The notes beneath the pieces are model-generated. The model was given only the letters and a program-made list of their open reading frames with translations, searched no databases and was not told where the DNA came from. From the IMG/VR virus record IMGVR_UViG_3300046804_002762, positions 31,681-95,680 of that record: a DNA stretch of 64,000 bases; one strand, given 5' to 3'. The stretch's first letter is position 1. Each line of letters begins with the position of its first letter. This DNA is from a virus. Shown piece after piece: positions 6,000-22,756 of this stretch. Position numbers and translations under genes: made by a program.

Positions 6000-6192
6000 T
6001 AAAAACTTTGGGGCCTTGAAAGTGTTCTAATAATGTAAGCACTCAAACTCAAATGGAAGACTTTGATGACCTTTTAGTAGAAGAGTTTTCTTCTTTTGAC
6101 TTTCTTGAAGAGATGAATGAAGGTCTCTTTGAAGAGCAAGATAATTTGAAATCCTTCAACAACTATTTGAACTCCAATTACGATTGCTGATT

Positions 6193-6583
6193 ATGACTCC
6201 TGACACTTACACTTTTTCTGGCGATGCTGTTACCTTCCTTGGTTTGGTTGGTGTTGCTTCAACGCTTCTTATTGTTGTTACTTCTTTCCGCAGGTTTTTC
6301 AACAGTCCTTACAATGTTCGTGTGACACCTAAAGTTACTCAAGAGACCACCACTGAAATTACTGAATCCTGAACTAATGACTCAAACTGTAAACGTCCTG
6401 CCTCATCTTGAAGAACTGAAAAATGCTTGGCGTAAGCAAGATTTTAAGTTCAGTTCAACACAAAATGAAGAGTATCAAATGCTTCTTCAAGCACGACGAG
6501 AAAGGGTTAGGTGGTTCTACGAAACTGGTCAAGTATGTAAAGTCAGTAAATCTGCACAAGATAAACTGAAGGAAGACAACTAA
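6193..6583 (+). CDS. Two small hypothetical ORFs: 6193-6372 (membrane) and 6377-6583
   Basis: Consecutive ORFs; the first has a TM segment. Confidence 0.65.
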
Positions 6584-6655
6584 ACAATGGTGCTGCAGTT
6601 GAGAAACTGAACACTGACTCTTGACTAAATACCTAAAAAGACTTATTCTGTAGAG

Positions 6656-7258
6656 ATGAAAACATTTTCTCAATTTTGTGCAGAAGCATATGATGCTTCC
6701 TTTATGTCTGGAGCACAAATTCGCAGAACAGGCGAAGGTGGGCGTATTGGATCTTTGAGAAAAAAGACTGCCCCCGAAAAGCGTAGAATGGCACAGGCAA
6801 AACCAGGAGAAGAAAGAAAACCAACAGAATATAAACCAAGAAAGGATATTGGTACTCAAAGACAAGCATCTACAAGAGTTCAACAACCAACACAAGAACG
6901 TGGATCTGCTGATGTAAAAGCAAAAGCAGCAGCGGCAGCAAAAGAAGAAAGAAAGAAAGCAGCACTTGCTAGAATTGCTGCAAAGAAAGGTGGAGCAGCA
7001 CCAGCAGCAGAAAAACCAAAAGCAAAAGAAGCAGAAAAGACAGCAACTAAACTACTTGCAAAGAAGAAAACTGAAGTAGATTTAAGACCTGCTGATCAAC
7101 CAAAACGTCCTGTTGTTGGTATGTCAAGAGAGAAAAGAAAGGACATTACAAGAAGAGGTCATAGAAAACTTGAAACTCTTGTAAGACAATCTGAGGCAGA
7201 AAAGCAAGGTAAGAAACCAGAGCAAGTTCAACTTAAGCACGACTATAGACCTAAGTAA
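6656..7258 (+). CDS. Lys/Ala-rich basic protein, putative internal head protein
   Basis: MKTFSQFCAE versus T4 CTS consensus MKT(Y/F)xEFIxE; TAAATA at 6626-6631. Confidence 0.65.
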   Translation: MKTFSQFCAEAYDASFMSGAQIRRTGEGGRIGSLRKKTAPEKRRMAQAKPGEERKPTEYKPRKDIGTQRQASTRVQQPTQERGSADVKAKAAAAAKEERKKAALARIAAKKGGAAPAAEKPKAKEAEKTATKLLAKKKTEVDLRPADQPKRPVVGMSREKRKDITRRGHRKLETLVRQSEAEKQGKKPEQVQLKHDYRPK

Positions 7259-7310
7259 TCTAACTCTGGGGCCTTGAAAGTGTCCCTGTAGTATAAGCAC
7301 TTCCTTCATA

Positions 7311-7788
7311 ATGGACCGAATCGAAATCCAACGCGCACTCTATGATGCTCGCAATGAGTATGCGAAGGCAAAGAAATCTGTAGAGTTTTGGACTCGTGAG
7401 ATTTCTTTCTTGAAAGAGTGTGAAGACAACCTCAATAAAGGTCGCACTGGTGATTGGTTGTTTAATGAAATGTTTGGCGATACTCCACTCGCTGAAGAAG
7501 TTTATGGGGGTTGATTAAACCTCATCAGCACGCTCAGATTAACCTCTAAGCGTGCTATTTTTGTCTTTAGATACCAAACCACTGAGAACAATGAATTACA
7601 TTCAGATCCCTGATTATGTCTATGAGCGTATGCTCAAGACTCTTCAAAATGGCGTCGATGTGTGCTATAATGTAGATCATTCCTCGGATATTACTGAACA
7701 GTCTCCGAGTTATGCAAATGGTTACAGTCGCGCTACAATGCAGAGTGTGATCTCTGATTTGAAATACTGCAAAGAGCAACAGAACTAA
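7311..7788 (+). CDS. Two small hypothetical ORFs: 7311-7514 and ~7591-7788
   Basis: Lie between repeat copies 7261 and 7788. Confidence 0.65.
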
Positions 7789-7823
7789 ACTCTGGGGCCT
7801 TCAAAGTGTCCTTATATTAGATA

Positions 7824-9065
7824 ATGATTCCAATGCAAATCCAACTTCGCCCTCATCAAGAACGCGGTGTTGCTGCTATGCAAAAGCACCCTAAAGGTCA
7901 ACTGATCGTTCCAACGGGAGGAGGAAAAACTCTCAAGATGATCTATGATGCTCTGCGCGAGTTGCAGTCTGAAACTCCCCAGACCATTGTTGTTGTTGCT
8001 CCTCGCATTTTGCTTGCTGAGCAACTTTCTGCTGAGTTCCTTGAGTTTATCACCAACGCCAAGGTTTTTCACGTTCACAGTGGCGAAACTCATCACGAGT
8101 CTTCCACTCGCCCTCGTGAGATTCGTAACTGGGTTGATGCTAATGCTGGCAATCATCGCCTGATTGTAACCACCTACAATTCTCTGTCGCGTCTCCAAGT
8201 AGCAGAGATTGATGTGGATACGATCTACTTTGATGAGGCACATAACAGCGTTCAGCGTCATTTTTTCCCTGCAACTGAGCACTTTGCTGCTAATGCACGT
8301 CGCTGCTACTTTCTGACGGCAACCCCAAAACATTCTCTTGCTGTCGGCAAACCAGGGATGAATGATGCTGCTGTTTATGGTCAGGTGATCTGCAAAGTTC
8401 CTGCTCCTGAGTTGGTTGAAGGTGGATACATTGTTCCCCCTAAAGTGATCGTCAAGCAACTGCCTATGGTAACTGGTAAGCAGACCAACTTCGACCGTGA
8501 TTCGGAGAATCTGCTAGAAACCATTGATGACAATCAAGTCGGCAAGATTTTGATCTGCGCTAAGGCAACCAAGCAGATTGTTTCTCTGGTTTCTGAGACT
8601 GACTTCTGTTCTGAGTTGGAGTCTCGCGGTTATTCTTGGATGTATATCACGGCAAAGACGGGTGCTGTCATCGACGGTAAGAAAGTGAACCGTGAGGTAT
8701 TCTTCGACACGCTATCTGCCTGGGGTAAGGATAACGATAAGAAGTTCGTTGTTCTCCACCACTCCATCCTGGCAGAAGGTATCAACGTGTCGGGTTTGGA
8801 AGCAGTTCTCTTCCTGCGTAATATGGACTTTATTGGTATCTCCCAAACTATCGGACGCTGTATCAGGTTGCATCACGATGATGCCAAAGGTCTGCGCGAT
8901 GGACGTATCGAACCTGGCAACCTTGCTCAGTATAGCAAATCGTTCGGTCTTGTTTGTATTCCCATTTACTCAAAAGTAGGAATCGCTACTGCCCGCGCAG
9001 TTCAGTCTGTCGTTGATACGATCTTTGAGAAGGGCGAACCTGCCATCAGCACTGTGAGGCGGTGA
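7824..9065 (+). CDS. Superfamily 2 DEAH helicase (Res-III-like)
   Basis: LRPHQ Q-motif, PTGGGKT, DEAH, TAT, EGINV, QTIGRCIR. Confidence 0.9.
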   Translation: MIPMQIQLRPHQERGVAAMQKHPKGQLIVPTGGGKTLKMIYDALRELQSETPQTIVVVAPRILLAEQLSAEFLEFITNAKVFHVHSGETHHESSTRPREIRNWVDANAGNHRLIVTTYNSLSRLQVAEIDVDTIYFDEAHNSVQRHFFPATEHFAANARRCYFLTATPKHSLAVGKPGMNDAAVYGQVICKVPAPELVEGGYIVPPKVIVKQLPMVTGKQTNFDRDSENLLETIDDNQVGKILICAKATKQIVSLVSETDFCSELESRGYSWMYITAKTGAVIDGKKVNREVFFDTLSAWGKDNDKKFVVLHHSILAEGINVSGLEAVLFLRNMDFIGISQTIGRCIRLHHDDAKGLRDGRIEPGNLAQYSKSFGLVCIPIYSKVGIATARAVQSVVDTIFEKGEPAISTVRR

Positions 9066-9182
9066 GTCTCACAGTAGACTCAAGGCCCTGACTGGACTGA
9101 AAACCTGATTTTTCTGCAATTCTACCTGAAGGGTGTCATAGGTCATCCTCCGCAACCAAATCAACGATTTTTTGGAAAGTGT
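9061..9182 (-). repeat. Non-coding element, inverted homolog of 18521-18641
   Basis: Reverse complement shares ACACTTTC, TGCGG(A/G)GGATGACCTA and GAGAC(T/G)CACC at matched spacing. Confidence 0.75.
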
Positions 9183-9192
9183 AGAATAGGGC

Positions 9193-9221
9193 TTGAAATC
9201 CCTACCCAAAGTTGTTAAACT
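9193..9221 (+). promoter_or_regulatory. Sigma70-type promoter
   Basis: TTGAAA-17 nt-TAAACT. Confidence 0.6.
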
Positions 9222-9252
9222 ATCTCCTGTAGTTGCTTTTAGCACAAACACA

Positions 9253-10239
9253 ATGACTATTATTTCTATTCCCCTGAAAGGCGTTTCGCCTCAACTTCGC
9301 GCTGAAATTGAATCTAAACTTCCCGAACCTCTTAAAGTTCCTGGTTGGAAGTTTAATGGTTATCAATGGCGTTTGCTGTCACAGATTAACACCAAAGATT
9401 CTGAAGGAAACACTGACAATAGTGTTAGAATCTCTGGAACTGGTGACAATGAGACCTTGCAGATTTCTCTCCGTAAGGGTATTGATGTAAATAAACTTAC
9501 CCCATCAATTTATCCCAACGATAACTTGATGAATGGATTCAATAGGATTAAAAATCTTCTTGAAATTGGATACAAAGAGTGGATCTTTGCAGAATATGTT
9601 GAAGATGAATCTACTCGCAGTGAGTTTCAAGAATCTTTTGAAGAATGTTTGGATGACTTTCGCGCCGCTGCAAATGCGGGAGATGGTCAGAAAGTAATCA
9701 GCGACAAAGAAGTAGAAGAACTTGCCAGAAAGAGATTTGGGCATCGTAAGGATCAGAGTAAGCAATCTATTGCTAAATGGATTCGCACTCTTGATCTTAA
9801 TTGGAGTGGTCAAAAGATTGATGGTGTAGCTAACAAAGTCTCTAAAGATTTTACGCGCAAAGGTGTAATTGAATCATACAATCGTGATGAAGCACAACAG
9901 TTTCTAAACGATAATGGTATTGGTGCTGATCTTCTTAACACTAAAGATTCTACTCGTGTTGCACGTCTTTATCCTCAAATTATGAGGAACTTTGTTAAAA
10001 ATGGTGTAACTATGGATCTTGCATTGTTTGATAGTGACGCTTGCTCTCACGAAGAACTTGATAATCGCCAAAAAGAAACCCTTGATGAACTTAAAGAGTA
10101 TGATGAGTTGGTTATGCAATATGCCGCAAAGCGTATGCTTATGATTGGTATTCATCCTTGGAACATTATTGGTTCAATCTCTCAAAAGATTGGTGTTGAA
10201 GAACAGAAACTGGAAAATGGTTTGGTTCCTGTAGAATGA
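9253..10239 (+). CDS. Protein with probable ParB/Srx-like N-terminal domain
   Basis: L..SLRKGID...P...LMNGFNR motif; ATG 9253 follows the promoter. Confidence 0.5.
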   Translation: MTIISIPLKGVSPQLRAEIESKLPEPLKVPGWKFNGYQWRLLSQINTKDSEGNTDNSVRISGTGDNETLQISLRKGIDVNKLTPSIYPNDNLMNGFNRIKNLLEIGYKEWIFAEYVEDESTRSEFQESFEECLDDFRAAANAGDGQKVISDKEVEELARKRFGHRKDQSKQSIAKWIRTLDLNWSGQKIDGVANKVSKDFTRKGVIESYNRDEAQQFLNDNGIGADLLNTKDSTRVARLYPQIMRNFVKNGVTMDLALFDSDACSHEELDNRQKETLDELKEYDELVMQYAAKRMLMIGIHPWNIIGSISQKIGVEEQKLENGLVPVE

Positions 10240-10412
10240 AAGAAGGATTTACAATGTTCAAAGACACCTATGCTGCTGTTCCTTACGGGAATCAGTATCT
10301 TATCATTCACAATGGTCAGCAACTTGAGAAACTGTGTAGGACTGAAAGTTCTGCACGGAAATATATCACTGACCATAGGAAAAGTGTGTCATTAGGCAAA
10401 CTTCCAATGTGA
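10236..10412 (+). CDS. Small hypothetical protein
   Basis: MKEGFTMFKDTYAAVPYGNQYLIIHNG; ATGA overlap. Confidence 0.6.
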   Translation: MKEGFTMFKDTYAAVPYGNQYLIIHNGQQLEKLCRTESSARKYITDHRKSVSLGKLPM

Positions 10413-10465
10413 TTCTAACTTTGGGGCCTTGAAAGTGTTCCTATAGTGTAGTCACCTATTCCCAA

Positions 10466-10735
10466 ATGACTTTTTACTGGACGTTCGTTGACACTCTTGT
10501 TAAGAACGTCGCTACCATCAGTGCCATTGTTGTTGGAGTCAGTCAGTTTCTGATTCGTTCATTTAATGAGAACAATGGTCGTGAAAAAGTTCGTGCTGCA
10601 ACGCTTCAATTCCTGAAGTTTGTTGATACGCTGATTGAATTTGGTAAAGCACAACTTTCTCCTGCTGAAGTAGTAGAGCAACCTCAAGTTGTACCTGCTA
10701 CTGTTACCAAAACCCGCAAGCGTCGTTCCGCTTGA
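10466..10735 (+). CDS. Hypothetical protein
   Basis: First ORF after repeat 10416. Confidence 0.7.
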   Translation: MTFYWTFVDTLVKNVATISAIVVGVSQFLIRSFNENNGREKVRAATLQFLKFVDTLIEFGKAQLSPAEVVEQPQVVPATVTKTRKRRSA

Positions 10736-10804
10736 TAAACTGTCACAAGAGCACTTGCAATTCAGCAGGTGCTCCTTTATTGTACATTTGTTCTTGAAAC
10801 TCCA

Positions 10805-11008
10805 ATGATTTTCCTTACTGTTCCCGACCACGGTTGTGTTTATACTCTCTCGCAAGAAGATGGGGATGAGTTGTATTATGCTCCCATCTATGCAAATGGT
10901 AATGTAAATCTTGAGGAGTTTGCTCCTGTAGATTTAGATTCTGCAGATATGGATGAGATGGAACTCTTTGATATTCGCAATCGTCTTGCCAAACTGATGG
11001 AGGTTTAA
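10805..11008 (+). CDS. Acidic hypothetical protein
   Basis: ATG after TTGCAA-17-TATTGT promoter (10755-10783). Confidence 0.65.
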   Translation: MIFLTVPDHGCVYTLSQEDGDELYYAPIYANGNVNLEEFAPVDLDSADMDEMELFDIRNRLAKLMEV

Positions 11009-11058
11009 TGTAACTCTGGGGCCTTGAAACTGTACCTATAGCATAACCATTAGACAAA

Positions 11059-11556
11059 ATGACTCCCGAACAGAGATTCCAACAACTATTTGAGGAAATG
11101 TATCAACTTTGTGAAGAGCAAGGTTGGGGAGATCCTTTCAGTTATGCTCGCTCCCGTGAGATTCATCTTGCTGGTATTCTTGGGCATAAAGTAGCAGAAA
11201 CCTATTCTGGTGCTGATGCTGTGGATGAAGATGGTGAATGTGAGTATAAATCTACCATTGCCAATTCTATCAATGGGACGTATAATGGTATCAGTGTTCA
11301 AGATACCTGGGAAGAGCAAGAGCGTTATTTAATTGAGGAGAAACTTGGTAAGTATTCCAATCACTATATTGCTCGCTATGAGGGTGGCAAAGTTGTAGAA
11401 GTTTGGAAACTGACTGGTGATAATGTGCTGATGGTTCTGCTTCCTAAACTAAAGAAAGATTGGGAGCGTAAGATTCACGGTAAGCACAAAGATCCCCGTC
11501 TCTCTGGTAATCTAACTAAGAAAGAAATCCAACAGTTTGGGACTCGCATTGTATGA
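11059..11556 (+). CDS. PvuII-like PD-(D/E)xK restriction endonuclease
   Basis: GADAVDEDGECEYKS compared with recalled PvuII GNDAVDNAGQEYELKS; C-terminal WERK..G.HKD...GTRIV; similar length. Confidence 0.65.
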   Translation: MTPEQRFQQLFEEMYQLCEEQGWGDPFSYARSREIHLAGILGHKVAETYSGADAVDEDGECEYKSTIANSINGTYNGISVQDTWEEQERYLIEEKLGKYSNHYIARYEGGKVVEVWKLTGDNVLMVLLPKLKKDWERKIHGKHKDPRLSGNLTKKEIQQFGTRIV

Positions 11557-12104
11557 CGATTGATAGTGGAAAACTAATGTATTCGGAGGGTAACAATGAC
11601 GAATGTTACACTCCGTTTTATGCTGTAACTCCCATTCTGAAGTATATTCCCAAAGATGCAAAAGTCTGGTGTCCTTTTGACACTGCTGAGAGCGAGTTTG
11701 TTAAGCAAATCTCCCAAACTCATAGTGTAGAATACTCTCACATAAGTGAAGGAAAAGATTTCTTTACCTATGAACCTTTTCACTGGGATGTGATTGTATC
11801 CAATCCACCATTCACAAACAAACGTAAGTTCTTTGAGCGAGCATTATCATTTGACAAACCATTTGCTCTGATTATGACTAACACTTGGTTGAATGATAGT
11901 GCTCCGAAGCAGTTGTTTAAGGACAAGGATTTGCAACTGTTGATGTTTGACAAGCGTATGAAGTTTAACAGTCCTGATGGTCGTCCAAACGACAAGATTA
12001 CGTTCAGTTCTAGTTACTACTGCTGGAACTTTCTTCCCAAGCAAATCATTATGGAAGAACTTAACATACCAAAGAGCACATCAGAAGCAAAACTTCCTCT
12101 ATAA
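11553..12104 (+). CDS. Amino-(N6-adenine) DNA methyltransferase, small phage type
   Basis: DECYTP, VWCPFD, GKDFF, VSNPPF motif IV; ATGA overlap with the nuclease. Confidence 0.8.
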   Translation: MTIDSGKLMYSEGNNDECYTPFYAVTPILKYIPKDAKVWCPFDTAESEFVKQISQTHSVEYSHISEGKDFFTYEPFHWDVIVSNPPFTNKRKFFERALSFDKPFALIMTNTWLNDSAPKQLFKDKDLQLLMFDKRMKFNSPDGRPNDKITFSSSYYCWNFLPKQIIMEELNIPKSTSEAKLPL

Positions 12105-12139
12105 CACTAACTCTGGGGCCTTGAAACTGTACCTATAGT

Positions 12140-13036
12140 ATGAAGAACACTCACCTAGAACATCCTGAAGATAGCATCCTTACGGGTGATCTATCTGTGC
12201 TTGATTGGTTCTCTGAACCTGATAGTTCGATCAGTGTCAAGATAGATGGTGCTCCTGCCATAGTTTTTGGTACTGATCCTGAAACTGGTAAGTTTTTTGT
12301 GGGCACCAAGTCGGTATTCAACAAGAAAAAGATTAAGGTTAATTATAGTATTGAAGACATTCTGCGGAATCACGGTAACACTGTTCGCGTTGCAGAGATT
12401 CTTATTGCCTGCTTCGACAATCTGCCCCGAATTGATGGTATCATTCAAGGTGATTTCATTGGATACGGTGGAGACGACACTTATCGTCCCAACACTATCA
12501 CTTACAAGTTTCCGAATTGTGTAGAGGAAGCAATTATCTTTGCTCCTCACACTACCTATTCTGGTCCTAATTTGCGTGAGTGTGTTGCATCTTTCGGTGC
12601 AGATGTCCCTGACTGTGAGAATGTGAAATGGGTGCAACCTGAGGCATCTATTTGCCCTCATCGTGAGGATATTGAAGATGTGTGCAAGTTTGCTAAACAA
12701 ATGAGCACTCTATGTGAGTTCGTAAGTAACAAACAAGTAGCAGAACTCAAAAAAGTCATCAATTCCTACATTCGTGAGGGTAAGGAGGTGGATGAGCATG
12801 AAATTGCAGAAAATTTCGATGTTGATGTGAACCTGCTGCGACTGTGGAAGTTGGTGTATTCAATCAAGGTCGATTTGTTCTTCTTCATTGATGCTGACGA
12901 CAGTATTTCGTGTGAGATTGGTGGAAGGGAGTCTGTTCACGAAGGTTTCGTAATGACCAACAAGTTTGGTACTTACAAAGTAGTTGACCGCGCAGAGTTT
13001 AGCAGACTCAATTTTACACTTGAAAAGAGTTGGTAA
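12140..13036 (+). CDS. KxDG nucleotidyltransferase/ligase-like protein (DUF6267-like)
   Basis: HLEHPED, SVKIDGAPA, QGD, HEGFV, KVVDRAEFS. Confidence 0.6.
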   Translation: MKNTHLEHPEDSILTGDLSVLDWFSEPDSSISVKIDGAPAIVFGTDPETGKFFVGTKSVFNKKKIKVNYSIEDILRNHGNTVRVAEILIACFDNLPRIDGIIQGDFIGYGGDDTYRPNTITYKFPNCVEEAIIFAPHTTYSGPNLRECVASFGADVPDCENVKWVQPEASICPHREDIEDVCKFAKQMSTLCEFVSNKQVAELKKVINSYIREGKEVDEHEIAENFDVDVNLLRLWKLVYSIKVDLFFFIDADDSISCEIGGRESVHEGFVMTNKFGTYKVVDRAEFSRLNFTLEKSW

Positions 13037-13065
13037 CTCTGGGGCCTTGAAAGTGTCCTTATAGT

Positions 13066-13833
13066 ATGAGCACTGCACAAAGTCAAATGATTAACCAAAT
13101 CGCTGAAATGATTGTGGATGCTGCTAATGATCCACGCACCGCCGATAACATCCGCGAAATGCACAAACACCCACAAGGTGCAGAAACTTTGCGTCTGATT
13201 GTGCGTGATAATGTAGCAGGTGCTGCTGATGTAGTTGCTAATGCTCTCTGGAACAATCTCTGAAACTAAAATGACTACCACGTTCGCAGAATACGCTGCA
13301 CAGAAAGATGCACAAAACACAATCTATCTTAACATTGTTAAGTATGGTCTGATGCTATGTGATGCTCTGACCGCTGATGCGCCTGATAATTACTTCTATG
13401 AACTGGATAGTTCTGGTCGTAAGTATCATCGAATCTGGATGTACATTGGCGATCGTCGTGATAGCATCCACGCCTTTATTGATAAGAAAACAGGTTCAGT
13501 ATTGAAACCTGCAAGTGTAAAGGCACCTGCAAAGGGTGAGCGTTACAATCTCCTCTCTATTCCTTCCCGCGAGAAGTGTCTTGAGAGTGCAGATTGGTCG
13601 GGTGGTTATCTTTACGCAAAATGAACTACAAAGATCAACTGCTTCTTGAAATCAATCAAATCTGGCAGCAACTTACTGATGCTGGATGTAAAAATGCTGC
13701 TGATGGTGTAGATGCTGCGATTGCTTCTGCAGGTAATGACCTGACTAAGATTATGGCAGCGCACGATTATGCTTGCTGGCATTTACAAGAACTGGAAAAA
13801 ATGAGTTTGATTGATTCAACAATTATTGAGTGA
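13066..13833 (+). CDS. Three small hypothetical ORFs: 13066-13263, 13271-13624, 13621-13833
   Basis: First ATG lies in the repeat; second has GRKYHRI...HAFIDKKTG.V.KPAS.KAPAK. Confidence 0.7.
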
Positions 13834-13839
13834 AATGAA

Positions 13840-14337: not shown

Positions 14338-14503
14338 TTTTAACCAAAGTTGCCATTATTATTTAGCACAATATTATGCTTTTGATAACACTACCGATCC
14401 TAAACTTCAACGCTTCATTTATACGGAGATCAAAAAGATTCTCATTCAGCAAGGTAAATGGTGAGCAACAGTAACTCTGGGGCCTTGAAAGTGTCCCTAT
14501 AGT

Positions 14504-15512
14504 ATGAGAACAACCACTGAAACCAAGATGAACACCAACATCGTCTCCGAAATCTACTCCTATCACACGAATTGGAAGGAGGGTAAAGTCAACCAGATGT
14601 GGATTCAGCAAGTGAATGACAAGTTCATCGCTATTGCATACAATCCCGAAAAGAATGTTTCGATGCCTATGTCGAAACCCCGCACTTCCTACCAAGAGAC
14701 TCTCAAATGGGTTCGCGGTTGGTGTGGTACTTTCTGCACACTTCCTGCCTGATTGATTATGCTAACCTCTGGAATCTTAGTCCTGGTTGCTTACTCTTTA
14801 GGAGCAGCACAAGTCCTTCTCGTCCAACACTTTCTTCGCAAATGAATAAACTCACTAAAGCACAAAAAGAGATTCTTCTCACTCTTGAGAATGGAGATGA
14901 AGTTCTCAACTGGTCTCAACGGATGCGAGCACTTCAACCGCTGATTGATGCTGGTATTGTTTATATCAAAGAAACCAAAGATCCAAATGGTCATACAAAC
15001 AGTGTAAGAGTCGCACTGGTTGATTGATGATGAAAAACTATCGCGTTCGTGTTGAAACTAACGATGGATGTGTGACGATTTGGTATGAGAAATCCAATGC
15101 AAAGACTGCGGACAAACTGATACTCAATCGGGTATACAATCAACTCTGTGGTCTAAACATTAAAGAAATCTCTGTTAATCCCTCTGTCTGATCATGACTG
15201 ACCTTCGTTATTCTACTGGTGAGGAACTTGAGCAGTTCTTGTATGAGAAATGTCGTGAAGATGCTGACCTTCTGGCAACTATCATCAGCGAATATGTGTC
15301 CTCTCTGAGTGATAGCAAACTCTTTGAACTTGAGGACTTTCTTTCTAACAACTTTGGAGACGATTGAATTGTGAAATACGAAGTTAAAATGTATCAAGGT
15401 GGAAGAACTTTCGTTGAAGAAGTTTATGCTCCTGACCCCAAATCTGCAAGAGAGACTGCACAAGTTCGCAATCCTTCGTGTAAAGTTATTGGAGTAAATG
15501 TTTCTTTCAAGT
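14504..15512 (+). CDS. Run of small hypothetical ORFs: 14504-14752, ~14842-15027 and further <60-aa ORFs
   Basis: Closely packed + strand ORFs after repeat 14472. Confidence 0.6.
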
Positions 15513-15513
15513 A

Positions 15514-15612
15514 ATAAATAATGATGCCTTAACTGACTCGCATCTTTAAGGTTGGAGAGGAGAAATCCTCTCCTTTTAGTATAAATAATACTGCGAGTCA
15601 TTTCAAGAGCAG
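15514..15612 (+). repeat. Second copy of the ~100-bp regulatory module
   Basis: Near-identical to 5811-5910. Confidence 0.9.
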
Positions 15613-15614
15613 TT

Positions 15615-16148
15615 ATGCAAAAAGTAAGCGTTCAAGCATTGAACGAATGTTTCAATGTATCTGGCCCCGATTATGTTGAAATGCCTGAAGATTGGAAAGA
15701 TGTTGGTAATGAGTATCTATCAATTTTAGCAAGTAAAGCAGGTAAAATAAGTGCAGAAGTACAGAGAGAAAATCAAATAGGTATTTTTTCATTAACAAAA
15801 GAAGATAGGGTGAAAAATGGAAGAAAGGGAGGTTTAATTTCTGGAAATAATAATAAGAAAAACAAAACGGGTTTCTGTGGAAGAAGTAAAGAAAAGATGA
15901 GTATAGATGGTAGAAAAGCGGGAAAAATAGGAGGAAAAGTTAATGGCAAATTAACTTACGAAAATAAAACTGGTATTCACGGATTATCTAAAGAAGAAAC
16001 AAAAAGAAATGCAAGTATGGGAGGAAAAGTAATAAGTTCTCAAAGATGGAAATGTTTAGTTACGGGATTTATTTCAACCGCTGGTGCATTAGGAAATTAT
16101 CAAAAAGCAAGAGGAATTGATACTTCGCAGAGAGTAAGAGTTGAATAA
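15615..16148 (+). CDS. Basic KGG-repeat protein, probably homing-endonuclease-related
   Basis: Repeated GIFSLTKE..NGRKGG / GIHGLSKEE..ASMGG; AT-rich; late promoter; no clear nuclease motif. Confidence 0.5.
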   Translation: MQKVSVQALNECFNVSGPDYVEMPEDWKDVGNEYLSILASKAGKISAEVQRENQIGIFSLTKEDRVKNGRKGGLISGNNNKKNKTGFCGRSKEKMSIDGRKAGKIGGKVNGKLTYENKTGIHGLSKEETKRNASMGGKVISSQRWKCLVTGFISTAGALGNYQKARGIDTSQRVRVE

Positions 16149-16206
16149 TACTCAATGCAACTTTCAAATAACAGTAACTCTGGGGCCTTCAAAGTGTCCC
16201 TATAGT

Positions 16207-17001
16207 ATGAGCACAACCTTTTCCGTCCGATTCGATTCCAATGCACTCAATTCGCCTGAGTATATTGGACCTTTCTACACTGAAGATGAGGCACAAGATT
16301 ATGCTGATGATCGCAACAGTTCGTTAGCATTATCAGGTGTTCCTTCAAGTGTAGCATTTTACTCTGTTGTTTCCTGATTATGAAGTTCATTGGTAACTGC
16401 ATTAACTCTTTTGATGAGAATGGTGATTGTATCATTCCTTCACTTCCATTCGCAAATGTTACAGAGTTCGCTCAACTTGTGGAAGAAAGTGATAATGTAG
16501 AGATTGGTGATTTCATTATTCAATACAACGAAGAAACCGACGTTCATTCATTCTACTTTAACTGATTATGTTGTTCCAAGTTACTGCAATCGAGTTTGAT
16601 TACGATGAAGATGATGACTTTCCCGAGCATCAATTCTCAAACATTACCGATGAAACAATCGGTATGATTTGGGAAGCAGATGATGAAGATGATCTAGTTG
16701 AAGAGATTACTGCTGCAACAGGTTGGTGTATCAAATCTCTTGATTATCGCCACATTCTGAAATGATTTCCCTTCCTAATTTCACAAACAAAATGACATTC
16801 ACTGATTCACTGATTTCACAAGGTTATGTCTTCGATGATGAGAATTATGATGGTTGTTATGTAAAGCAAGATGCTGATGGTTTCATTCACCTTTATCAGG
16901 AAAATGTGGATGATGAAACTGACACTCTCTGGAATTATGTAAAGATGACTGAGGATTATGATGTCATCGAAGAAAAGACTTTTGCTCCTAACTGCAACTA
17001 A
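16207..17001 (+). CDS. Four small acidic ORFs: 16207-16377, 16380-16565, 16568-16765, 16792-17001
   Basis: First ATG lies in repeat 16175; tightly packed. Confidence 0.7.
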
Positions 17002-17014
17002 TTTCACAAACAAA

Positions 17015-17162
17015 ATGGACCTTACTCAAGAACAATACGATTCGTCGAACTGTAGCAGTTGCAGGTCTTAAAAAGACTTTCCCACTTAACATTCACGGTC
17101 GTATTTACAACACTCAAAAGGAATATGATGATGCACTTGCTGACTTTATCAATGGTCTCTAA
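17015..17162 (+). pseudogene. Out-of-frame fusion remnant, paralog of 17415-17597
   Basis: MDLTQEQYD then stop; the other frame gives ...TFPLNIHGRIYNTQKEYDDALADFINGL*. Confidence 0.65.
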
Positions 17163-17197
17163 TTCTAACTCTGGGGCCTTGAAAGTGTCCCTATAGT

Positions 17198-18077
17198 ATG
17201 AACAACACTCCAATCGACTTCCAAACCGACATCACTCCTACACTTCTGGAGTTTATGTGCAACAATCACACTGATCTGAATGACTGTGTAGACTTTGTTT
17301 GCTGTCAATTTGATCTCGATGCAACTGATGAGTTGATTGATCAGATTGCAGATGAGTTTGATGCTTTCTTCGGTAACTGATTCACACAAACACTTTTCCC
17401 ACTAATTGAAACAAATGACAAACTACAATCCTTACGTTCAAAACCTGATTGAGATGGGTTACGATGAGCAAGACTGCCGTATGGTTTCTGATGCTGGTCG
17501 CCAGAATGTAACCTACCCTCGTAACATTCACGGTCGCATCTTTGAGACTGAAGCAGACTATAAAGAAGCACTTGCTGACTTCATCAATGGTCTGTAGAGT
17601 TAAAGTTACTCACCTCCAAAGTGTCCTAGTAGTATGAGCACTGACATCACCCCGATTATAAATCTATTTCAGGAGTTTGCATCTAATCTGCCTGATGGAT
17701 TCTGGAAGTTTATTGTACTTCTCTTCCTTGTTTATGGATTAGGTGCTTTGATTGCATTTAATTCTTCTTCCAAAGACAACACAAGTCCTCTCTTCTGGGT
17801 TGACTTCTCTGATGATTCTGACATCAACGGCGATTCCTGATTTCAAACTATGATCTACACTTCTCCTCTCACCTCTAAAGTCTATCAAATCGTTGAGACT
17901 TCACACACACGCAATGCCTGGGATGAGCAAGGCAATCTAACACCTTATCAGCAATCTGTCTTTGAGATCTATTATGAAGGACAGAAAGTGCAGTTTGCAT
18001 TAACTGCTGAAGGTGTTGCTGCGAGTGTAGCACATCTTGAGAATCCTGGTCCTGATGTATCTTCCCGCTATGATTGA
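17198..18077 (+). CDS. Small ORFs 17198-17380, 17415-17597, 17634-17840, 17850-18077
   Basis: Two of the four start at repeat-embedded ATGs. Confidence 0.7.
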
Positions 18078-18520
18078 TGGCAAGGAGACTAACACTTAAG
18101 AGTCCATCCCAAGTGAAAACTATTGCCCTCATTTTTGCTGTTGCGTTTATACTCTCACCTGGAGTTCGCAACATCACCTCTAGCACATTACACACTGTAG
18201 CAAACATTATCTCACAACAACAATGAGTTTCTCAACTGCTGAAATTACTGCTCTTAAATCATTGATAGAGTTTCATGATGATTGGGATGAAGTAAGTGAA
18301 CTTATGGGCACTGATATAGAAGCATTGTACGAAAAAGTTTGTGAACTTGACACCAATGATTGAGACTGATTTTTACATTTTAAGTGGCGAACAATATCAA
18401 GAGTTTTATACCGAAGCACAGAAGATTGGTGTGACTATTGATTACTTTCTTGATGAGTTTTGTTATGTTGAAGGACCATACATTGTGAGTGATTAAGCAG
18501 CACATCTTTCTCACTAATTA

Positions 18521-18641
18521 ACACTTTCACTTTTTTCGACAATTTCACTGCGGGGGATGACCTAGACTGCCTGACAAGTGAAATCGCAAGTTTTTTCGGT
18601 TTTTGCTTGAGTGCTGGACTGGGATCTCAGCGAGACGCACC
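18521..18641 (+). repeat. Non-coding element, homolog of 9061-9182 (inverted)
   Basis: Shared blocks at conserved spacing. Confidence 0.75.
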
Positions 18642-18746
18642 TGAGACTGAGACCTGATACCAGCAGCAGCGAGCAAATCCTACAAAGTAACACAAACTCT
18701 TCAGTGAATAACAGTAACTCTGGGGCCTTGAAAGTGTCCCTATAGT

Positions 18747-19088
18747 ATGAGCACTTCCCAAATGATCCAAGATAACATCGATCGCATTCAAGATAGCATC
18801 AATCTGGCATCCAAACTTGCCCGAGACAATTATGATGCTCGCAATGGCATTATTGACCGCATGAGAATTGATTGGTCTGAACATGCACATCGTTTGACTT
18901 ATATTGCAGGTGAGTGTTCGTATTACTTTCCTCTGCACAATCAGAACGGCGATAAGATTAACGAGGTGAAACTCTATTGTCGTTGCTCTCCTACTGTAAA
19001 AGGAGGAGTTCGCTTCTCTTACACTCTGAACGGTAAGACTATTGCTCGCACCAAGATTGTGAATCGTTTGATTGAACTGGGAGTTTGA
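18747..19088 (+). CDS. Hypothetical protein, paralog of 19846-20133
   Basis: Shared DSI.L...LA..NY..RNG and C..S.TVKG..R....GK.IA. Confidence 0.75.
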   Translation: MSTSQMIQDNIDRIQDSINLASKLARDNYDARNGIIDRMRIDWSEHAHRLTYIAGECSYYFPLHNQNGDKINEVKLYCRCSPTVKGGVRFSYTLNGKTIARTKIVNRLIELGV

Positions 19089-19091
19089 ATT

Positions 19092-19811
19092 ATGAATCTC
19101 TATATCATCAACGAAGTCCTGTCTGATTATACCTCTGGAATGGCAGTAATTGCTGCTGAGTCTAAGGAACACTGCCGCGAGTTGTTTATCGAAGAGTTTG
19201 GCGAATACTATGCTGATTGTTTCGATAAGGATGCAAAGTTCACTGTTATCGAAGGTGTAAATCATGTTGCTGGTGTGGTAGATTATGTGTACGGTGGAGG
19301 TTGATTCCTACCTCACTGCCAATTAAAGTTACTCACCTCCAAAGTGTCCTAGTAGTATGACAACCACTGAAATGACCAAAATGACTCAAACTCCCTCCGA
19401 ACTTCTCTACAACGAAGCACTCAACTTTCTGGTTAATTACTTCAATCATTTTGATAAAGAGGAACTTCAATTTTATGGCAAACTGTATGTGAGCGATATT
19501 GTCAACATTCTTGGATATGCGACCTTTGAAGATAATCTTAACACTGAGGTTGGTTATATTTCCAATGTGACGACTCTGAATCGTCTCCGCAATGAAATTG
19601 TCGATCGTTTCTATAACTAACTATGACTGCATTTGTAACTCCCAAAAGCAAAAAAGCACAGAATCGTTTCTGTAACTTAATGAATCAAAATAATGAATGT
19701 ATTGTTGAGCAACATCGAGGTGATAAGGTGTTTCTCACTTCTGCTAACGGTAAGTATCACTTTTGGGCGAATCTTAACCACGACAAAGACTGGAACATTG
19801 AGTTGAATTAA
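19092..19811 (+). CDS. Small ORFs 19092-19304, 19357-19620, 19623-19811
   Basis: Packed + strand ORFs. Confidence 0.7.
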
Positions 19812-19845
19812 AGTAACTCTGGGGCCTTCAAAGTGTCCTAGTAGT

Positions 19846-20133
19846 ATGAACATCACTGACCTCTTCGATTCCATCAAACTCTCTGAGCAACTTGCGCTCG
19901 AAAACTATCAGCAACGCAACGGTGTTGTTGATTATCGTCTCGATGGAGTTTGTCATCACTACTTCGCAAAGTATGATCTGAATGGCACTCGCACTGGTGA
20001 GATTTGCCTCACCTGTAAAGTTTCCAAAACTGTAAAAGGTTCACTTCGTTATACTTTCCAGATCGACGGTAAGCGTATCGCAGAGAAGCAAATCCCTGCA
20101 GAGTTTAACCTTCTGGGTGCCTTCCGTAATTGA
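19846..20133 (+). CDS. Hypothetical protein, paralog of 18747-19088
   Basis: Single-gene unit between repeats 19814 and 20133. Confidence 0.75.
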   Translation: MNITDLFDSIKLSEQLALENYQQRNGVVDYRLDGVCHHYFAKYDLNGTRTGEICLTCKVSKTVKGSLRYTFQIDGKRIAEKQIPAEFNLLGAFRN

Positions 20134-20185
20134 AACTCTGGGGACTTGAAAGTGTCCCTATAGTATAACCACAACGCTTCTCACA

Positions 20186-21372
20186 ATGCGAGTCATCGAA
20201 CGTCAAATGAATCAAGCAATCTCCCAAGAGATTGATTGGAAAAAGGATAACACTGAAGTTATCAACATTGAAGGTGTAAGTTTCGTCTATCTGTATAGCA
20301 ATCTGATTGCAATGGTAGGTGATACTTGGTTGGAATTGTTTGATGGTGGGCATAAGTCAGCAACCACCAAGTCTCGTCTTAATGCTATTCTGAAAGAGCA
20401 TGGAAATAGCGAATACATCTACCAGAAAAACTTCAACTGGTTTGTGTCTACCAAGTACGGTGATGTTCCTTTCAATGATGGCATCAAACTGAACTGAACT
20501 ATGATGACTGATACCGACAAAGTGTTCGCACTAACTGAACTTCTCAATGACGTAATTCACACTCTTGAAATGAAACAGTATGACATCGAAGATGCTACTC
20601 TGTCTTATGAATGTGTGACTGATGCTGATAAGTTTCGCCAAAAGATGATCGACATTCTTTATCCCAACAAATGACAAAATCCTTCAAAAAGTTCATCTGG
20701 AAAGACTCTAACTCCGACCAAACAAAGGTTATTCTTGCCAGGTCAGAATACCAAGCAAGGAAACAAAACTTCGGCAATCTTGCTGGTTATCTTTACTCTC
20801 ACTCTGTTCCTCTTAACTGATGTTCACGATTCGTTATTTCACTCCTTATCAACAAGTCTGGAGAACGCAAAGTTTCTCTACATTAGAGGAAGCAAATCGT
20901 ATGGTTGACTTCTATCGCTCTTGTGGATCTCCTGCTGAATTACTAACCAAATGACTGAACTTCAAAAAGATTCAATTCTTGCAAACATCGTTGAACAAGT
21001 ACAATCTCGAATCACATATCTTGTCGAGCAAAATCTAATTGAAGAGTCTTATGCTCTGTATAAGGAATGGGAAGAACATCTAGACGATAATATCAGAGAA
21101 CTTGAAATTATCACTGTTATTGACCTCACTACAATTAACTGATTATGATTACTCTCACCACTGTTAATCTGCCTTTCATCATTAACAAGGAAAAGACCAA
21201 AGATGAGAAGCAAGAAGGTATGTTTGCTCTCTACTTTTACAGTCGAAAGATTATACACAAGAACAGAGTAAGGTATAAGTTTGAACCTCTAAGATTCGAT
21301 GGTAAGCAAGCACGTTTCAAGTCAAGAAAGGATGCCAAACGTTATGCTCAGTACCGATTAGGGATTGATTGA
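20186..21372 (+). CDS. Run of small ORFs: 20186-20497, 20951-21142, 21145-21372 and several <60 aa
   Basis: Packed + strand ORFs ending at a terminator. Confidence 0.65.
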
Positions 21373-21383
21373 TTATACTGTAG

Positions 21384-21409
21384 AGAGGGTACTTATACCC
21401 TCTTTTTTT
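21384..21409 (+). terminator. Rho-independent terminator
   Basis: AGAGGGTA-CTTA-TACCCTCT-TTTTTT between convergent genes. Confidence 0.8.
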
Positions 21410-21414
21410 ATTGC

Positions 21415-22191
21415 TTACTGATAGAACCAATAACAACCTTTCCAGGTATATTTGTGCGGATGTTTGAGTGATTTAGTACAACCACTATCTCCACCAGTGC
21501 CCAGTTCTCTCCCTGCTGCTCTTACACTTGGGAAGGCATATTTGATTTTATTTGTTACTTTATCTACGCCATAAATCGCATAACTTTTCTTTTTATCTTC
21601 CAACTTGATTATTCTGTGCCCCTTAACTTTCCATCCGTGTTTAATGTAACGATGAAGATTTGAAACTGCTATATCTAAACTCTCAGCACATTCTGTTATA
21701 CTATCATAGTAAGTTTCTTCCAAGGTATCAACATTTATTGTTTTTACCTTAACTCTACTATGTTTACCATCACCTCTAATAGTAAAATTAGCACCACTTC
21801 TTTTCATTCCTTTTCTTATATTTTCTATGTGCTCTGGTGTTTTCTCAACTCCAGTCATTGTGTCGCTTATTCTATCTTTTAGTTCGTCGCTTATTCTATA
21901 CTGTCCTCCAGCACCTGATGTCTGATTGTAACCATTATTGTAGGAATTGTATTCACTAATCCAGTAAGTTTCTCTTTCATCAAGTATATCTGATGAACAC
22001 TCTTCTATCACTCTTATGTTAAACTTATCTGCCCCATATTTGCGAAGAGATTTGTATAGTGGAGAGGGATTCATTCTCCTCGCTTCATATAGATGTTCTT
22101 TCCATCTTTTGTTCAGTTCATTTATAGTTTGACCCACATAATACTTACCAGTTTCTTTATTGTAGATTGCGTAGATTATTCCTTGGTTCAT
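21415..22191 (-). CDS. GIY-YIG homing endonuclease (Seg-like) with NUMOD repeats
   Basis: GIIYAIYNKETGKYYVGQT...R..EH...E..WI...NGYN. Confidence 0.9.
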   Translation of the reverse strand: MNQGIIYAIYNKETGKYYVGQTINELNKRWKEHLYEARRMNPSPLYKSLRKYGADKFNIRVIEECSSDILDERETYWISEYNSYNNGYNQTSGAGGQYRISDELKDRISDTMTGVEKTPEHIENIRKGMKRSGANFTIRGDGKHSRVKVKTINVDTLEETYYDSITECAESLDIAVSNLHRYIKHGWKVKGHRIIKLEDKKKSYAIYGVDKVTNKIKYAFPSVRAAGRELGTGGDSGCTKSLKHPHKYTWKGCYWFYQ

Positions 22192-22354
22192 TACTGATAA
22201 GACGCTCTAATAATATGTATAAATAGCAGGTTTTTTACTGATAGATTGCTATACTAAACTGTGGAAAACTAAATGTAAAATAAAAGGTATAGTAGTTTGT
22301 TATACCGTTTGTATTATATTTGATAAATGTGAGTTCTTGTAGTGATCTTACCCG

Positions 22355-22383
22355 ACGTTAGCACAGGACCGCACTTTTGTCAA
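22355..22383 (-). promoter_or_regulatory. Sigma70-type promoter, minus strand
   Basis: TTGACA-17 nt-TAACGT, with TG one base upstream of the -10. Confidence 0.55.
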
Positions 22384-22454
22384 CCCCAGCGTCACAAAAT
22401 CCCCACAATCCCCCCGCATAAAATCACCATCCCCTCATAAATACCCTCAAGACC

Positions 22455-22483
22455 TTGACACAAACTCCCAGGCATCTTACAAT
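22455..22483 (+). promoter_or_regulatory. Sigma70-type promoter
   Basis: TTGACA-17 nt-TACAAT. Confidence 0.8.
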
Positions 22484-22511
22484 ACACTCATAACACACCA
22501 GGAGCGTACTT

Positions 22512-22685
22512 ATGTCAGTTGCTTATAGTCAGGCACAGAAGCAGCGTTATAGAATCACTCTGGATTTATCAGTGTTCGGTGACTTCGACCCCCACCAGAT
22601 TGATTGGGAGAAGTTATTCAAGTTGGAACCTGCAGAGAAGTGTGAGGCGTATGTAGAGGACTTAAGTACACCTGACCGTTGGTGA
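22512..22685 (+). CDS. Small hypothetical protein (57 aa)
   Basis: AGGAG RBS; MSVAYSQAQKQRYRITLDLSVFGDFDPHQIDWEKLF. Confidence 0.7.
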   Translation: MSVAYSQAQKQRYRITLDLSVFGDFDPHQIDWEKLFKLEPAEKCEAYVEDLSTPDRW

Positions 22686-22756
22686 GTGTTAGTAACTCTG
22701 GGGCCTTGAAAGTGTCCCTATAGTATAGACACCAATCAACCGCAAATCTCCGACAA

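Follow-up and report, generated by a model that had tools for sequence, protein, structure and literature searches.

The source contig (95.7 kb, 44% complete) derives from a freshwater T4-like, Kyanoviridae-like cyanomyovirus, and the window analysed here is a stretch of 64,000 nucleotides of the virus record. The window holds a variable region of ~17 kb, with a UvsW-like helicase on one side and baseplate genes on the other, in which 16 blocks of small genes each have one copy of a repeat ahead of them. This array contains two homing endonucleases and is interrupted by minus-strand genes. Three terminator-like sites lie within it (10749, 15554 and 21382) and a fourth lies just upstream (5851), none of them part of the repeat, which makes a restart function for the repeat plausible. 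The features are given below in window coordinates; positions within the repeat are counted so that its 3' ATG, where there is one, stands at +16.

6003..6042, plus strand: copy 1, degenerate, with the core AAAGTGTTCTAATAATGT; downstream gene begins at 6053 (+34)
7261..7300, plus strand: copy 2, of the G-run variant and with ATA at +16; downstream gene begins at 7311 (+34)
7787..7826, plus strand: copy 3, with a degenerate 3' part TTATATTAG, heading the gene of the UvsW-like helicase (7824-9065)
10416..10455, plus strand: copy 4, with GTA at +16; downstream gene begins at 10466 (+34)
11011..11050, plus strand: copy 5, of the rare sub-variant AAACTGTACC, bordering the restriction-modification-like cassette on its left; gene start 11059
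11051..12107, plus strand: cassette with a PvuII-like ORF (below the Pfam cut-off) and a DNA methyltransferase; missing in relative L021
12108..12147, plus strand: copy 6, rare sub-variant AAACTGTACC; right border of the restriction-modification-like cassette; ATG 12140 of the DUF6267 gene
13034..13073, plus strand: copy 7, its first TAA being the stop of the DUF6267 gene; ATG 13066
14472..14511, plus strand: copy 8, consensus; ATG 14504
16175..16214, plus strand: copy 9; ATG 16207
17166..17205, plus strand: copy 10, consensus; ATG 17198
17602..17641, plus strand: copy 11, second 5'-half variant GTTACTCACCTCC, core CCTAGTAGTAT; ATG 17634
18715..18754, plus strand: copy 12, consensus; ATG 18747
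19325..19364, plus strand: copy 13, second 5'-half variant; ATG 19357
19814..19853, plus strand: copy 14, G-run 5' half, core CCTAGTAGTAT; ATG 19846
20133..20172, plus strand: copy 15, with ATA at +16; downstream gene begins at 20186 (+37)
22693..22732, plus strand: copy 16, the last one, with ATA at +16; downstream gene begins at 22757 (+48)

The first-pass annotation had described 16 intergenic copies in one orientation, 0.3-2.6 kb apart, and our data agree: all 16 are on the plus strand between 6003 and 22732, spaced by 319-2629 nt, with none elsewhere in the 95.7-kb contig. A 35-mer with at most three mismatches gave nine matches against none expected (100 shuffles). The 18-nt core AAAGTGTCCCTATAGTAT with at most four mismatches matched 15 times on the plus strand of the whole contig, always at window positions 7277-22709, and once on the minus strand outside the window, a chance-like hit with four mismatches; the 16th copy is the degenerate one at 6003-6042. 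The 5' half is AACTCTGGGGCCTTS (the G-run form) in 14 of the 16 copies and AAAGTTACTCACCTCC in two (17602-17641 and 19325-19364), which are identical over 38 nt (17600-17637 and 19323-19360).

The 5' end had been said to sit on or beside the upstream stop, and in 14 of 16 copies an ORF of at least 40 codons indeed ends somewhere from 3 nt inside the element to 26 nt ahead of it, at a distance of no more than 7 nt in 12 of them; the TAA at 13034-13036 both ends the gene 12140-13036 and supplies the first three bases of a repeat. At the 3' end, nine copies have an ATG at +16 opening ORFs of 56-298 codons, exactly those annotated before (12140, 13066, 14504, 16207, 17198, 17634, 18747, 19357, 19846), and in the other seven the gene begins 21-48 nt past the core start. 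The repeat-headed genes lack a Shine-Dalgarno sequence as claimed, but so do the cassette-internal genes, so this absence is not special to the repeat.

We analysed 523 unique copies, namely 223 plus a second, separate contig set of 300. Across the 223 copies the conserved block extends from -16 to +23, followed by a G-poor stretch at +24 to +32. The base at +15 is T in 222/223 copies, +14 is G in 203/223, T+12, A+13 and T+17 are near-invariant, and a C-A-C is conserved at +21 to +23. Position +16 is a purine in every copy of both sets (223/223 and 300/300). An ATG occurs there in 126/223 and 167/300 copies (56% overall), and its frame is open for at least 30 codons in 121/126 and 158/167 of them (95-96%); copies without it use frames 0 and 2 about equally. 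Start codons lie either at +16 or at +31 and beyond, with 4/223 and 9/300 in between, which is the pattern expected if the mRNA 5' end is near +16.

The repeat ATG at 12140 is the sole possible start of the DUF6267 gene, and in this family it stands in the same register for the ATG of repeat-less relatives (MKNTH... vs MQNKH...), the Pfam profile starting at residue 3. The 3' ATG of the repeat is a genuine, selected start codon, and hence transcripts expressing those genes must begin at or before it. The element thus behaves like a self-contained expression signal, which lends indirect support to that part of the earlier proposal. In 41 of 115 ATG copies another in-frame ATG follows at codon 6, so that some repeat-headed genes could start downstream, and read-through transcripts could also serve for translating these genes.

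The element is not new in kind, as several cultured cyanophages use the same core. We found AAAGTGTCCCTATAGTAT ahead of small genes in SynMITS9220M01, S-SM2 and S-B05 and in over 150 IMG/VR contigs (42 + 114 stretches). SynMITS9220M01 and S-B05 have 8-12 core copies each, restricted to the equivalent region of the genome (45-49 kb and 31-40 kb, respectively), and the complete SynMITS9220M01 holds at least 11 copies of the element. Syn9 has a more distantly related element, GTGT-N3-CTATAAG, in 4-5 copies at the corresponding place in its genome.

A non-standard early-gene element has been reported in the T4-like cyanophages Syn9 and P-TIM40 (Doron et al. 2016, ISME J 10:1437). The array repeat appears to resemble it: both belong to T4-like cyanomyoviruses, lie in the stretch of small genes from the helicase to the baseplate wedge, are repeated in one orientation directly ahead of small genes, and do not look like host promoters. 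The repeat that we found in the Syn9 genome, presumably the published motif, has GTGT-N3-CTATA(A/G) in common with ours. They differ in the 5' half, which is a separate GC hairpin with a T-run in Syn9 and the G-run or TTACTCACC form in the array phage, and in the start codon, which follows 17-19 nt downstream behind an AAGGGA box in Syn9 whereas the array-type element has a built-in ATG in 56%.

The repeat is probably, though by no means certainly, the form that the early-gene promoter element of T4-like cyanophages takes in this lineage. From the sequences we infer promoter activity, a start site and leaderless translation; no RNA run contains this sequence. The signal would be a compact DNA element of ~40 bp in two parts, an exchangeable 5' half, here of the G-run (14 copies) or TTACTCACC form (2 copies), and a widely shared core, AAAGTGTCC(C)TA(T/G)AGTRT. 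Transcription would start no more than two bases from the purine that is invariant at +16, directly after the TATAG box. The mRNA would then be leaderless or nearly so where +16 to +18 is ATG; in the other copies it would have a leader of 15-40 nt, poor in G and lacking a Shine-Dalgarno sequence. We presume that the element is read by the host RNA polymerase with a specificity factor, because the relatives with complete genomes encode neither a T7-type polymerase nor any sigma factor besides the late gp55; a search for a factor able to read the element found none.

The repeat had been judged not to fit a normal sigma70 promoter, with TTGAAA and TATAGT only 7 nt apart. That gap is correct, a sigma-70 consensus scan called none of the 16 copies (48 sites overall vs 45 expected), and the geometry of the repeat is not sigma-70-like. 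Counting against this reading, TAGTRT (+12 to +17) agrees with TAnnnT, the -10 pattern of cyanobacteria, its matching T+12, A+13 and T+17 being the near-invariant bases. It is conceivable, but in our view unlikely, that the repeat is a host sigma-70 (SigA) promoter without a -35 box, with TAGTRT or TATAGT (+10 to +15) as its -10 and a start at about +22 to +25. The C-A-C at +21 to +23 favours such a promoter, since it offers a pyrimidine-purine start at the canonical distance, 7 nt after TATAGT; the conserved block, counted from +22, would run from -38 to +2, as far as a bacterial promoter extends, and copies without ATG would have leaders of 9-15 nt. The variant in SynMITS9220M01 and S-B05 has GTTACT or ATTACT exactly 17 nt before TATAGT, but in the main variant of the array the TAACTC box would have to lie 4 nt closer to the -10 position, and the Syn9 form lacks the final T of the -10 box in either register. 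The +16 ATG would never be in the promoter's own transcript, and would be translated from read-through only or be an in-frame passenger. Another in-frame ATG is present at codons 4-13 in 63% of ATG copies, but in the remaining 37%, e.g. the DUF6267 gene, the +16 ATG is the only one within the first 13 codons, and the 95-96% of these ATGs in frame also argue against a passenger. Losing the start codon of the headed gene in more than half of the copies is implausible, notably for single-gene cassettes (12140-13036).

The GGGGC...GTCCC hairpin suggested earlier is not borne out. It folds no better than shuffled sequence (z +0.3 to -0.9), its central G-T is found in 207/223 copies with a compensatory change in 1/223, and it is absent from the second 5'-half variant, used by the same phage. 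We therefore find doubtful, given no significant fold, at most that one compensatory change and no Rfam match, an RNA-level element by which a long early transcript would be punctuated, whether through cleavage at or immediately before the AUG or through ribosome loading in place of a Shine-Dalgarno sequence. Such an element would suit the contact with the start codon, the genes without Shine-Dalgarno, the location of every copy on the coding strand and the 3'-arm C-to-T changes that preserve G-U pairing in 65 cells. However, the 5' half is swapped wholesale between variants, and in 44% of copies the start codon is 15-40 nt off, which is odd for ribosome positioning. One long transcript is unlikely in any case as terminators and minus-strand genes break the array, and there is no excess of sigma-70-like promoters to feed it.

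The resemblance to the SP6 promoter core noted before is real, at 10/12 positions (GTGTCCCTATAG vs GTGACACTATAG, with the SP6 letters as quoted in the first-pass annotation), but an SP6-type polymerase does not follow from it. As in T7/SP6-group promoters, the repeat is a long, highly conserved single block with a CTATAG box directly before the presumed start, it has G at +14 in 203/223 copies, and an AT-rich stretch lies at the would-be site of the AT-recognition loop. That it is read by a single-subunit RNA polymerase of this type, starting at the G of CTATAG (+14), is nevertheless very improbable. PF00940 has no match in the 95.7-kb contig, including the window as had been stated, or in the complete SynMITS9220M01, which bears the core, or in Syn9, with the Syn5 polymerase recovered as a positive control (E = 4e-77). 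Conservation also reaches ~15 nt further upstream than in T7-type promoters, and the purine that follows the G by two bases is the best candidate for the start. T4-like cyanophages are not known to carry a single-subunit RNA polymerase.

PeSLs, which combine a sigma-70 promoter close to consensus (N17 spacing) with a stable, transcription-terminating stem-loop, are known in the T4-type phages RB49/phi1, T4/PST and KVP40/nt-1 (Arbiol et al. 2010, PMC2839356; Comeau et al. 2014, PMC4122927). Like them, our repeats are dense, intergenic, of one orientation and confined to a hyperplastic region of a T4-type genome; they include a G-run, stand ahead of small cassettes of genes of unknown function and lie at the borders of indels, replacements and permutations among relatives. 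They differ in having no sigma-70 geometry, significant hairpin or T-run. On the promoter reading favoured here, the 16 direct copies of 35-40 bp would serve as a side effect as short homology patches for the homologous-recombination machinery of the phage, by which whole promoter-plus-gene cassettes might be inserted, deleted and permuted in a PeSL-like manner. The repeat would then have a dual role as an early expression signal and a recombination seam.

The integron analogy drawn before fails, each cassette having its own signal, and we give the least credence to a primarily site-specific recombination site of the attC type with a dedicated recombinase: direct repeats at cassette borders and breakpoints inside the element would fit it, but the 95.7-kb contig (44% complete) has no tyrosine recombinase, the repeat contains no attC-like imperfect palindrome, many breakpoints fall at repeat-less junctions, and the crossover in relative L021 resembles plain homologous exchange within ~30 identical bases, the T4-type machinery requiring under 50 bp of homology (Arbiol et al. 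2010, PMC2839356).

Comparison of breakpoints among relatives, as proposed earlier, shows that the repeats mark sites where gene blocks are gained, lost and swapped. The ends of homology blocks fall within repeats +/-20 nt in 115 of 258 cases, on 7.6% of the territory, that is 7.2 per junction at repeats vs 2.3 at other gene junctions (~3 times). The shuffling signal is modest, with linkage of 7% across repeat junctions vs 16% across others (p = 0.04, the contigs not being independent), and the excess of breakpoints may stem from selection that keeps transcription units intact, and not from recombination at the repeat. In L021 the restriction-modification-like cassette is missing as a clean 1.1-kb indel, with breakpoints inside the flanking repeats and the crossover inside the repeat. 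L025 has swapped cassettes, L037 and L040 show other joins between different repeats, and metagenome contigs carry the joins 17204-to-19858 and 19358-to-22996.

The repeat, an intergenic unit of about 40 nt, is present in 16 copies at 6003-22732 of the window. The first-pass annotation had described these copies as intergenic and in one orientation, and our searches bear this out: 16/16 lie on the plus strand, at spacings of 319-2629 nt. A 35-mer search gave nine matches at no more than three mismatches, where none is expected. The 18-nt core AAAGTGTCCCTATAGTAT has 15 plus-strand matches with up to four mismatches in the whole contig, all within the array interval, and the 16th copy, at 6003-6042, is degenerate. 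The 5' half reads AACTCTGGGGCCTTS in 14 of the 16 copies and AAAGTTACTCACCTCC in the two at 17602 and 19325. The 5' end was said to lie on or beside the upstream stop, and in 14/16 copies the upstream open frame indeed ends close by, from 26 nt short of the element to 3 nt into it; at 13034 the stop codon of the upstream gene is the first triplet of the repeat. Counting from the first A of the AAAG that begins the core as 0, nine of the 16 copies supply the ATG of the next gene at +16, again as claimed, and open ORFs of 56-298 codons. In the seven copies without this ATG the genes start at +21 to +48. The reported absence of a Shine-Dalgarno sequence before the repeat-headed genes holds but is not particular to the repeat, since the genes internal to the cassettes (the gene blocks between copies) do not have one either. 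The segments 17076-17161 and 17511-17596 form an 86-nt partial duplicate of 77% identity, and the 3' end of the gene at 17415-17597 reappears as a fragment immediately 5' of the preceding repeat copy, as if it were a remnant of unequal exchange.

The 95.7-kb parent IMG/VR contig is rated 44% complete, and its nearest relatives by DNA similarity are the Kyanoviridae Synechococcus myoviruses SynMITS9220M01, Bellamy and S-SM2. Two runs with 93% of the sampled words of the contig come from a single freshwater metagenome sample. For 12000-21000 of the window, no RNA run was among the matches. The array sits among small plus-strand genes. Their region includes the gene of a UvsW-like helicase (7824-9065) and ends before ~27.4 kb, where the genes of the baseplate wedge and the giant fibre begin. 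This location is that of the small-gene regions in the cyanophages SynMITS9220M01, S-SM2, S-B05 and Syn9. The G+C content is 38-44% in the small-gene array (6000-24000) versus 29-33% in the downstream structural module (28000-52000).

The element belongs to a wider family. SynMITS9220M01 carries 11 copies consisting of GTTACTCACCTCT and the same core as in the window, S-B05 carries 12 copies of ATTACTCACCTCG followed by AAATGTCCACTATAGTGT, and the copies in S-SM2 have GGGGGGTCG as their 5' half. Syn9 has 4-5 copies of a more distant element, GTGTATTCTATAAGAG, behind a separate GC hairpin and T-run; the Syn9 copies lie near 46.34, 47.26, 48.61, 51.05 and 53.05 kb. The G-run form of the window is present in 42 IMG/VR stretches and the TTACTCACC form in 114. 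Complete genomes have the element in the small-gene region alone. The 3' core is kept across phages while the 5' half varies, so that the core is the common part; the 5' half is exchangeable even inside the phage of the window. The 223 unique copies of a first contig set are conserved from about -16 to +23, after which comes a G-poor stretch at +24 to +32. T+15 is found in 222/223 copies, a purine at +16 in 223/223, and A+19 and A+22 in 197/223 each. A second, separate contig set agrees, with a purine at +16 in 300/300 copies, i.e. 523/523 over both sets.

Statistical evidence indicates that the built-in ATG does serve as a start codon. An ATG occupies +16 to +18 in 126/223 copies of the first set and 167/300 of the second, and its frame is open for at least 30 codons in 121/126 and 158/167 of them, respectively, with frame 2 open in just 13 and 8. 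Overall, 279/293 ATGs at +16 are in frame, while in copies with ATA or GTA at this position frames 0 and 2 are used to a similar extent. Start codons fall into two groups, one at +16 and one from +31 onwards, and over both sets only 13/523 lie between them. The DUF6267 gene (12140-13036) has its conserved HLEHPED motif from residue 5 and its Pfam profile from residue 3, and the ATG of the repeat is the sole start in this family. DUF6267 relatives without the repeat start MQNKHIEHPED, in the same register as MKNTHLEHPED in the window, so the ATG of the repeat has replaced the gene's own start codon. A second in-frame ATG is found at codon 6 in 41/115 ATG copies, and some DUF6267 relatives read MNKQPMQNKH..., so a downstream start is possible for part of the genes. 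In two related contigs (L031 and L048) the DUF6267 genes without the repeat have a T-run and then TCATTATAGATTC directly 5' of the ATG; here, too, a TATAG box lies within a few bases of a start codon.

Where transcription starts can be read in two ways, and comparison of the copies favours a start at +16. Transcription would begin at the invariant purine, right after the invariant T, and the mRNA would be leaderless if the triplet is AUG and would otherwise have a G-poor leader of at least 15 nt. Such a start accounts for the two classes of start-codon position and for the in-frame ATGs, as well as for the layout in Syn9, where the leader would be 17-19 nt long and include an AAGGGA box 8-9 nt upstream of the ATG. 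It needs a geometry other than that of sigma-70, because -12 to -7 would read TGTCCC. The other reading, which we consider distinctly less probable, takes TAGTRT or TATAGT as a -10 box with transcription from +22 to +25. Two features agree well with this, the TAnnnT pattern and a conserved C-A-C at +21 to +23, but such a promoter would sever the start codon of the headed gene in 56% of copies, the TAACTC box of the main variant is displaced by 4 nt relative to SynMITS9220M01 and S-B05, and the Syn9 form does not have the final T of the box. A simple sigma-70 scan also calls none of the 16 copies. The misfit with a normal sigma70 promoter had been noticed before, and our analysis agrees: TTGAAA and TATAGT are 7 nt apart, and the consensus scan, negative at all copies, gives 48 sites versus 45 expected. 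Readings as an NtcA site or as sigma-54 and ECF-type boxes were dropped by eye, as spacing or consensus did not fit.

In T4-like cyanophages a novel element reportedly drives the early genes and host-like promoters the middle genes, and this account agrees with a signal that is not host-like. In a text search of the literature, neither the cyanophage early motif nor its mapped starts turned up in any open-access paper. Sullivan et al. 2010 predicted early promoters with BPROM only and list no PeSL-like elements under that term in cyanophages.

The likeness of the core to the SP6 promoter core, pointed out in the first-pass annotation, is real at 10/12 core positions, but no cognate polymerase was found. 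PF00940, the T7-type polymerase family, has no match in the whole 95.7-kb contig, which extends the same statement for the window, and is likewise absent from the complete SynMITS9220M01 and Syn9; the Syn5 enzyme, used as positive control, was found with E = 4e-77. A search of complete relatives for sigma regions 2 and 4 gave the gp55 late sigma factor as the sole sigma-like ORF, and region 4 was not found. One reading, somewhat less likely than not, is that T4-like cyanophages have a promoter class whose geometry resembles that of T7/SP6 promoters, with initiation right after a CTATAG-type box, although no single-subunit polymerase is encoded. Initiation would then coincide with the start codon, more than half of the early mRNAs would be leaderless, and a virion-carried or host-supplied specificity factor would have to re-position the RNA polymerase of the cyanobacterium. 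Sub-classes differing in strength or timing could be set by the exchangeable 5' halves, G-run versus TTACTCACC.

The hairpin proposed from GGGGC...GTCCC does not hold. Its folding is no stronger than that of shuffled controls (z between +0.3 and -0.9). A G-T sits at the centre of the pairing in 207/223 copies, and in 26 a C-to-A change at +7 disrupts the pairing; a single compensatory change is seen among the 223. The arm is missing from the TTACTCACC variant, i.e. from 2/16 copies in the window, and also from SynMITS9220M01 and S-B05. No T-run follows the pairing, so it is not a terminator, and Rfam has no match anywhere in the window. A strong terminator hairpin, GGAGAGGA-GAAA-TCCTCTCC with a T-run, is found in a 99-nt duplicate of 96% identity at 5811-5909 and 15514-15612, one just upstream of the early-type array and the other inside. 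It is directly followed by TATAAATA, a T4-type late-promoter box; the duplicate is a second type of composite terminator-plus-promoter module beside the repeat.

The repeat had also been taken for a recombination site, with breakpoints of gene gain and loss among relatives expected to fall in it. We ran 32 related, non-redundant contigs against the window with BLAST and collected 258 internal ends of homology blocks. The repeats with 20 nt on either side hold 115 of these ends in 7.6% of the territory, and the numbers per junction are 7.2 at repeats versus 2.3 at other gene junctions, a modest effect. Per kb, there are 90 ends at repeats, 17 at other junctions and 5.8 inside genes. The enrichment is real but modest, in a region that is mosaic throughout. 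Flanks stay linked at 7% of repeat junctions versus 16% of other junctions (p = 0.04, with contigs that are not independent), and gene adjacency is kept for 16-19% of pairs across repeats versus 28-29% within cassettes, based on crude ORF calls. These gene-order and flank-linkage tests go in the expected direction, are weak and are not mutually independent.

The clearest case concerns the following cassette:

11051-12107, restriction-modification-like cassette of 1.1 kb, PvuII-like ORF and DNA methyltransferase (ORFs 11059-12104)

The PvuII-like ORF has a Pfam E-value of 9e-4, below the cut-off, and belongs to phrog_35715, and the methyltransferase to phrog_799. The cassette is present in only 3-5 related contigs, and a type II restriction enzyme is annotated in the equivalent region of S-SM2. 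The sub-variant AAACTGTACC has just two copies, one on either side of the cassette. In the related contig L021 a single AAACTGTACC copy joins both outer flanks, a clean indel that points to a crossover within ~30 shared bases. This cassette and the DUF6267 cassette are in reversed order in L025, and L037 and L040 have joins between other repeat pairs. In metagenome contigs, 17204 is joined to 19858 in the runs that contain the phage of the window, and 19358 to 22996 in a run of another study. Part of the shuffling signal may come from selection that keeps promoter-plus-gene units intact, and part from the two homing endonucleases of the array. The homing-endonuclease genes lie on the minus strand within the plus-strand array, an apparently short one of HNH type at 13840-14337 and one of GIY-YIG type with a NUMOD domain at 21415-22191, with a terminator-like site at 21382 between the latter and the converging genes.

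Among known systems, the repeat fits best with the early-gene element of T4-like cyanophages, as a probable variant in this lineage, and what sets it apart is a start codon built into more than half of the copies. The position and gene type of the array match gp63-gp93 of Syn9. Like the reported element (Doron 2016), the motif is unlike host sigma-70 promoters and common to T4-like cyanophages. The analogy with PeSL, the promoter-early stem-loop of T4-type phages, stands in part. Both are repeated intergenic elements, co-oriented with the genes and clustered in the T4-type hyperplastic region (here 16 copies in 17 kb, from the helicase to the baseplate genes), and in both the borders of indels and replacements among relatives lie at the element, as in the L021 indel and the L025 swap. 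Two defining features of PeSL are missing here, the strong sigma-70-like promoter (about TTGACA-N17-TATAAT) and the stable terminator stem-loop. By analogy, the element would act like PeSL as a promoter-bearing seam, its promoter being a predicted one, and the phage recombination system, for which <50 bp of homology is enough (Arbiol 2010, PMC2839356), would carry out homologous exchange between such short repeats. The integron analogy fails, as there is no tyrosine recombinase and no attC-type imperfect inverted repeat, and each cassette has its own signal; PF00589, used to look for an IntI-type tyrosine recombinase, has no match in the 95.7-kb contig, itself 44% complete, and was found in 14/14 control genomes. 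Overall, the observation in the first-pass annotation is confirmed and its interpretation partly supported.

T4-like cyanophages are among the most abundant viruses of seas and lakes, and to our knowledge none of the T4 proteins Alt, Mod, AsiA and MotA takes part when they start their infection programme. The window and the 523 related copies define the element sharply, with a purine at +16 that never varies, and this bears on how these phages launch infection without those proteins. The same core is present in the cultured SynMITS9220M01, S-B05 and S-SM2, making the start site and the reading factor directly accessible. The array also shows a cyanophage in which accessory cassettes, one of them with a restriction-modification-like pair, are bordered by predicted promoter repeats. 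Past the last copy, at 22985-23955, five small genes (starts at 23017, 23228, 23519, 23715 and 23954) stand behind other G-poor leaders, of ~40 nt; these leaders have ACTCACC and CACACAGTTACT in common and may be a second signal class.
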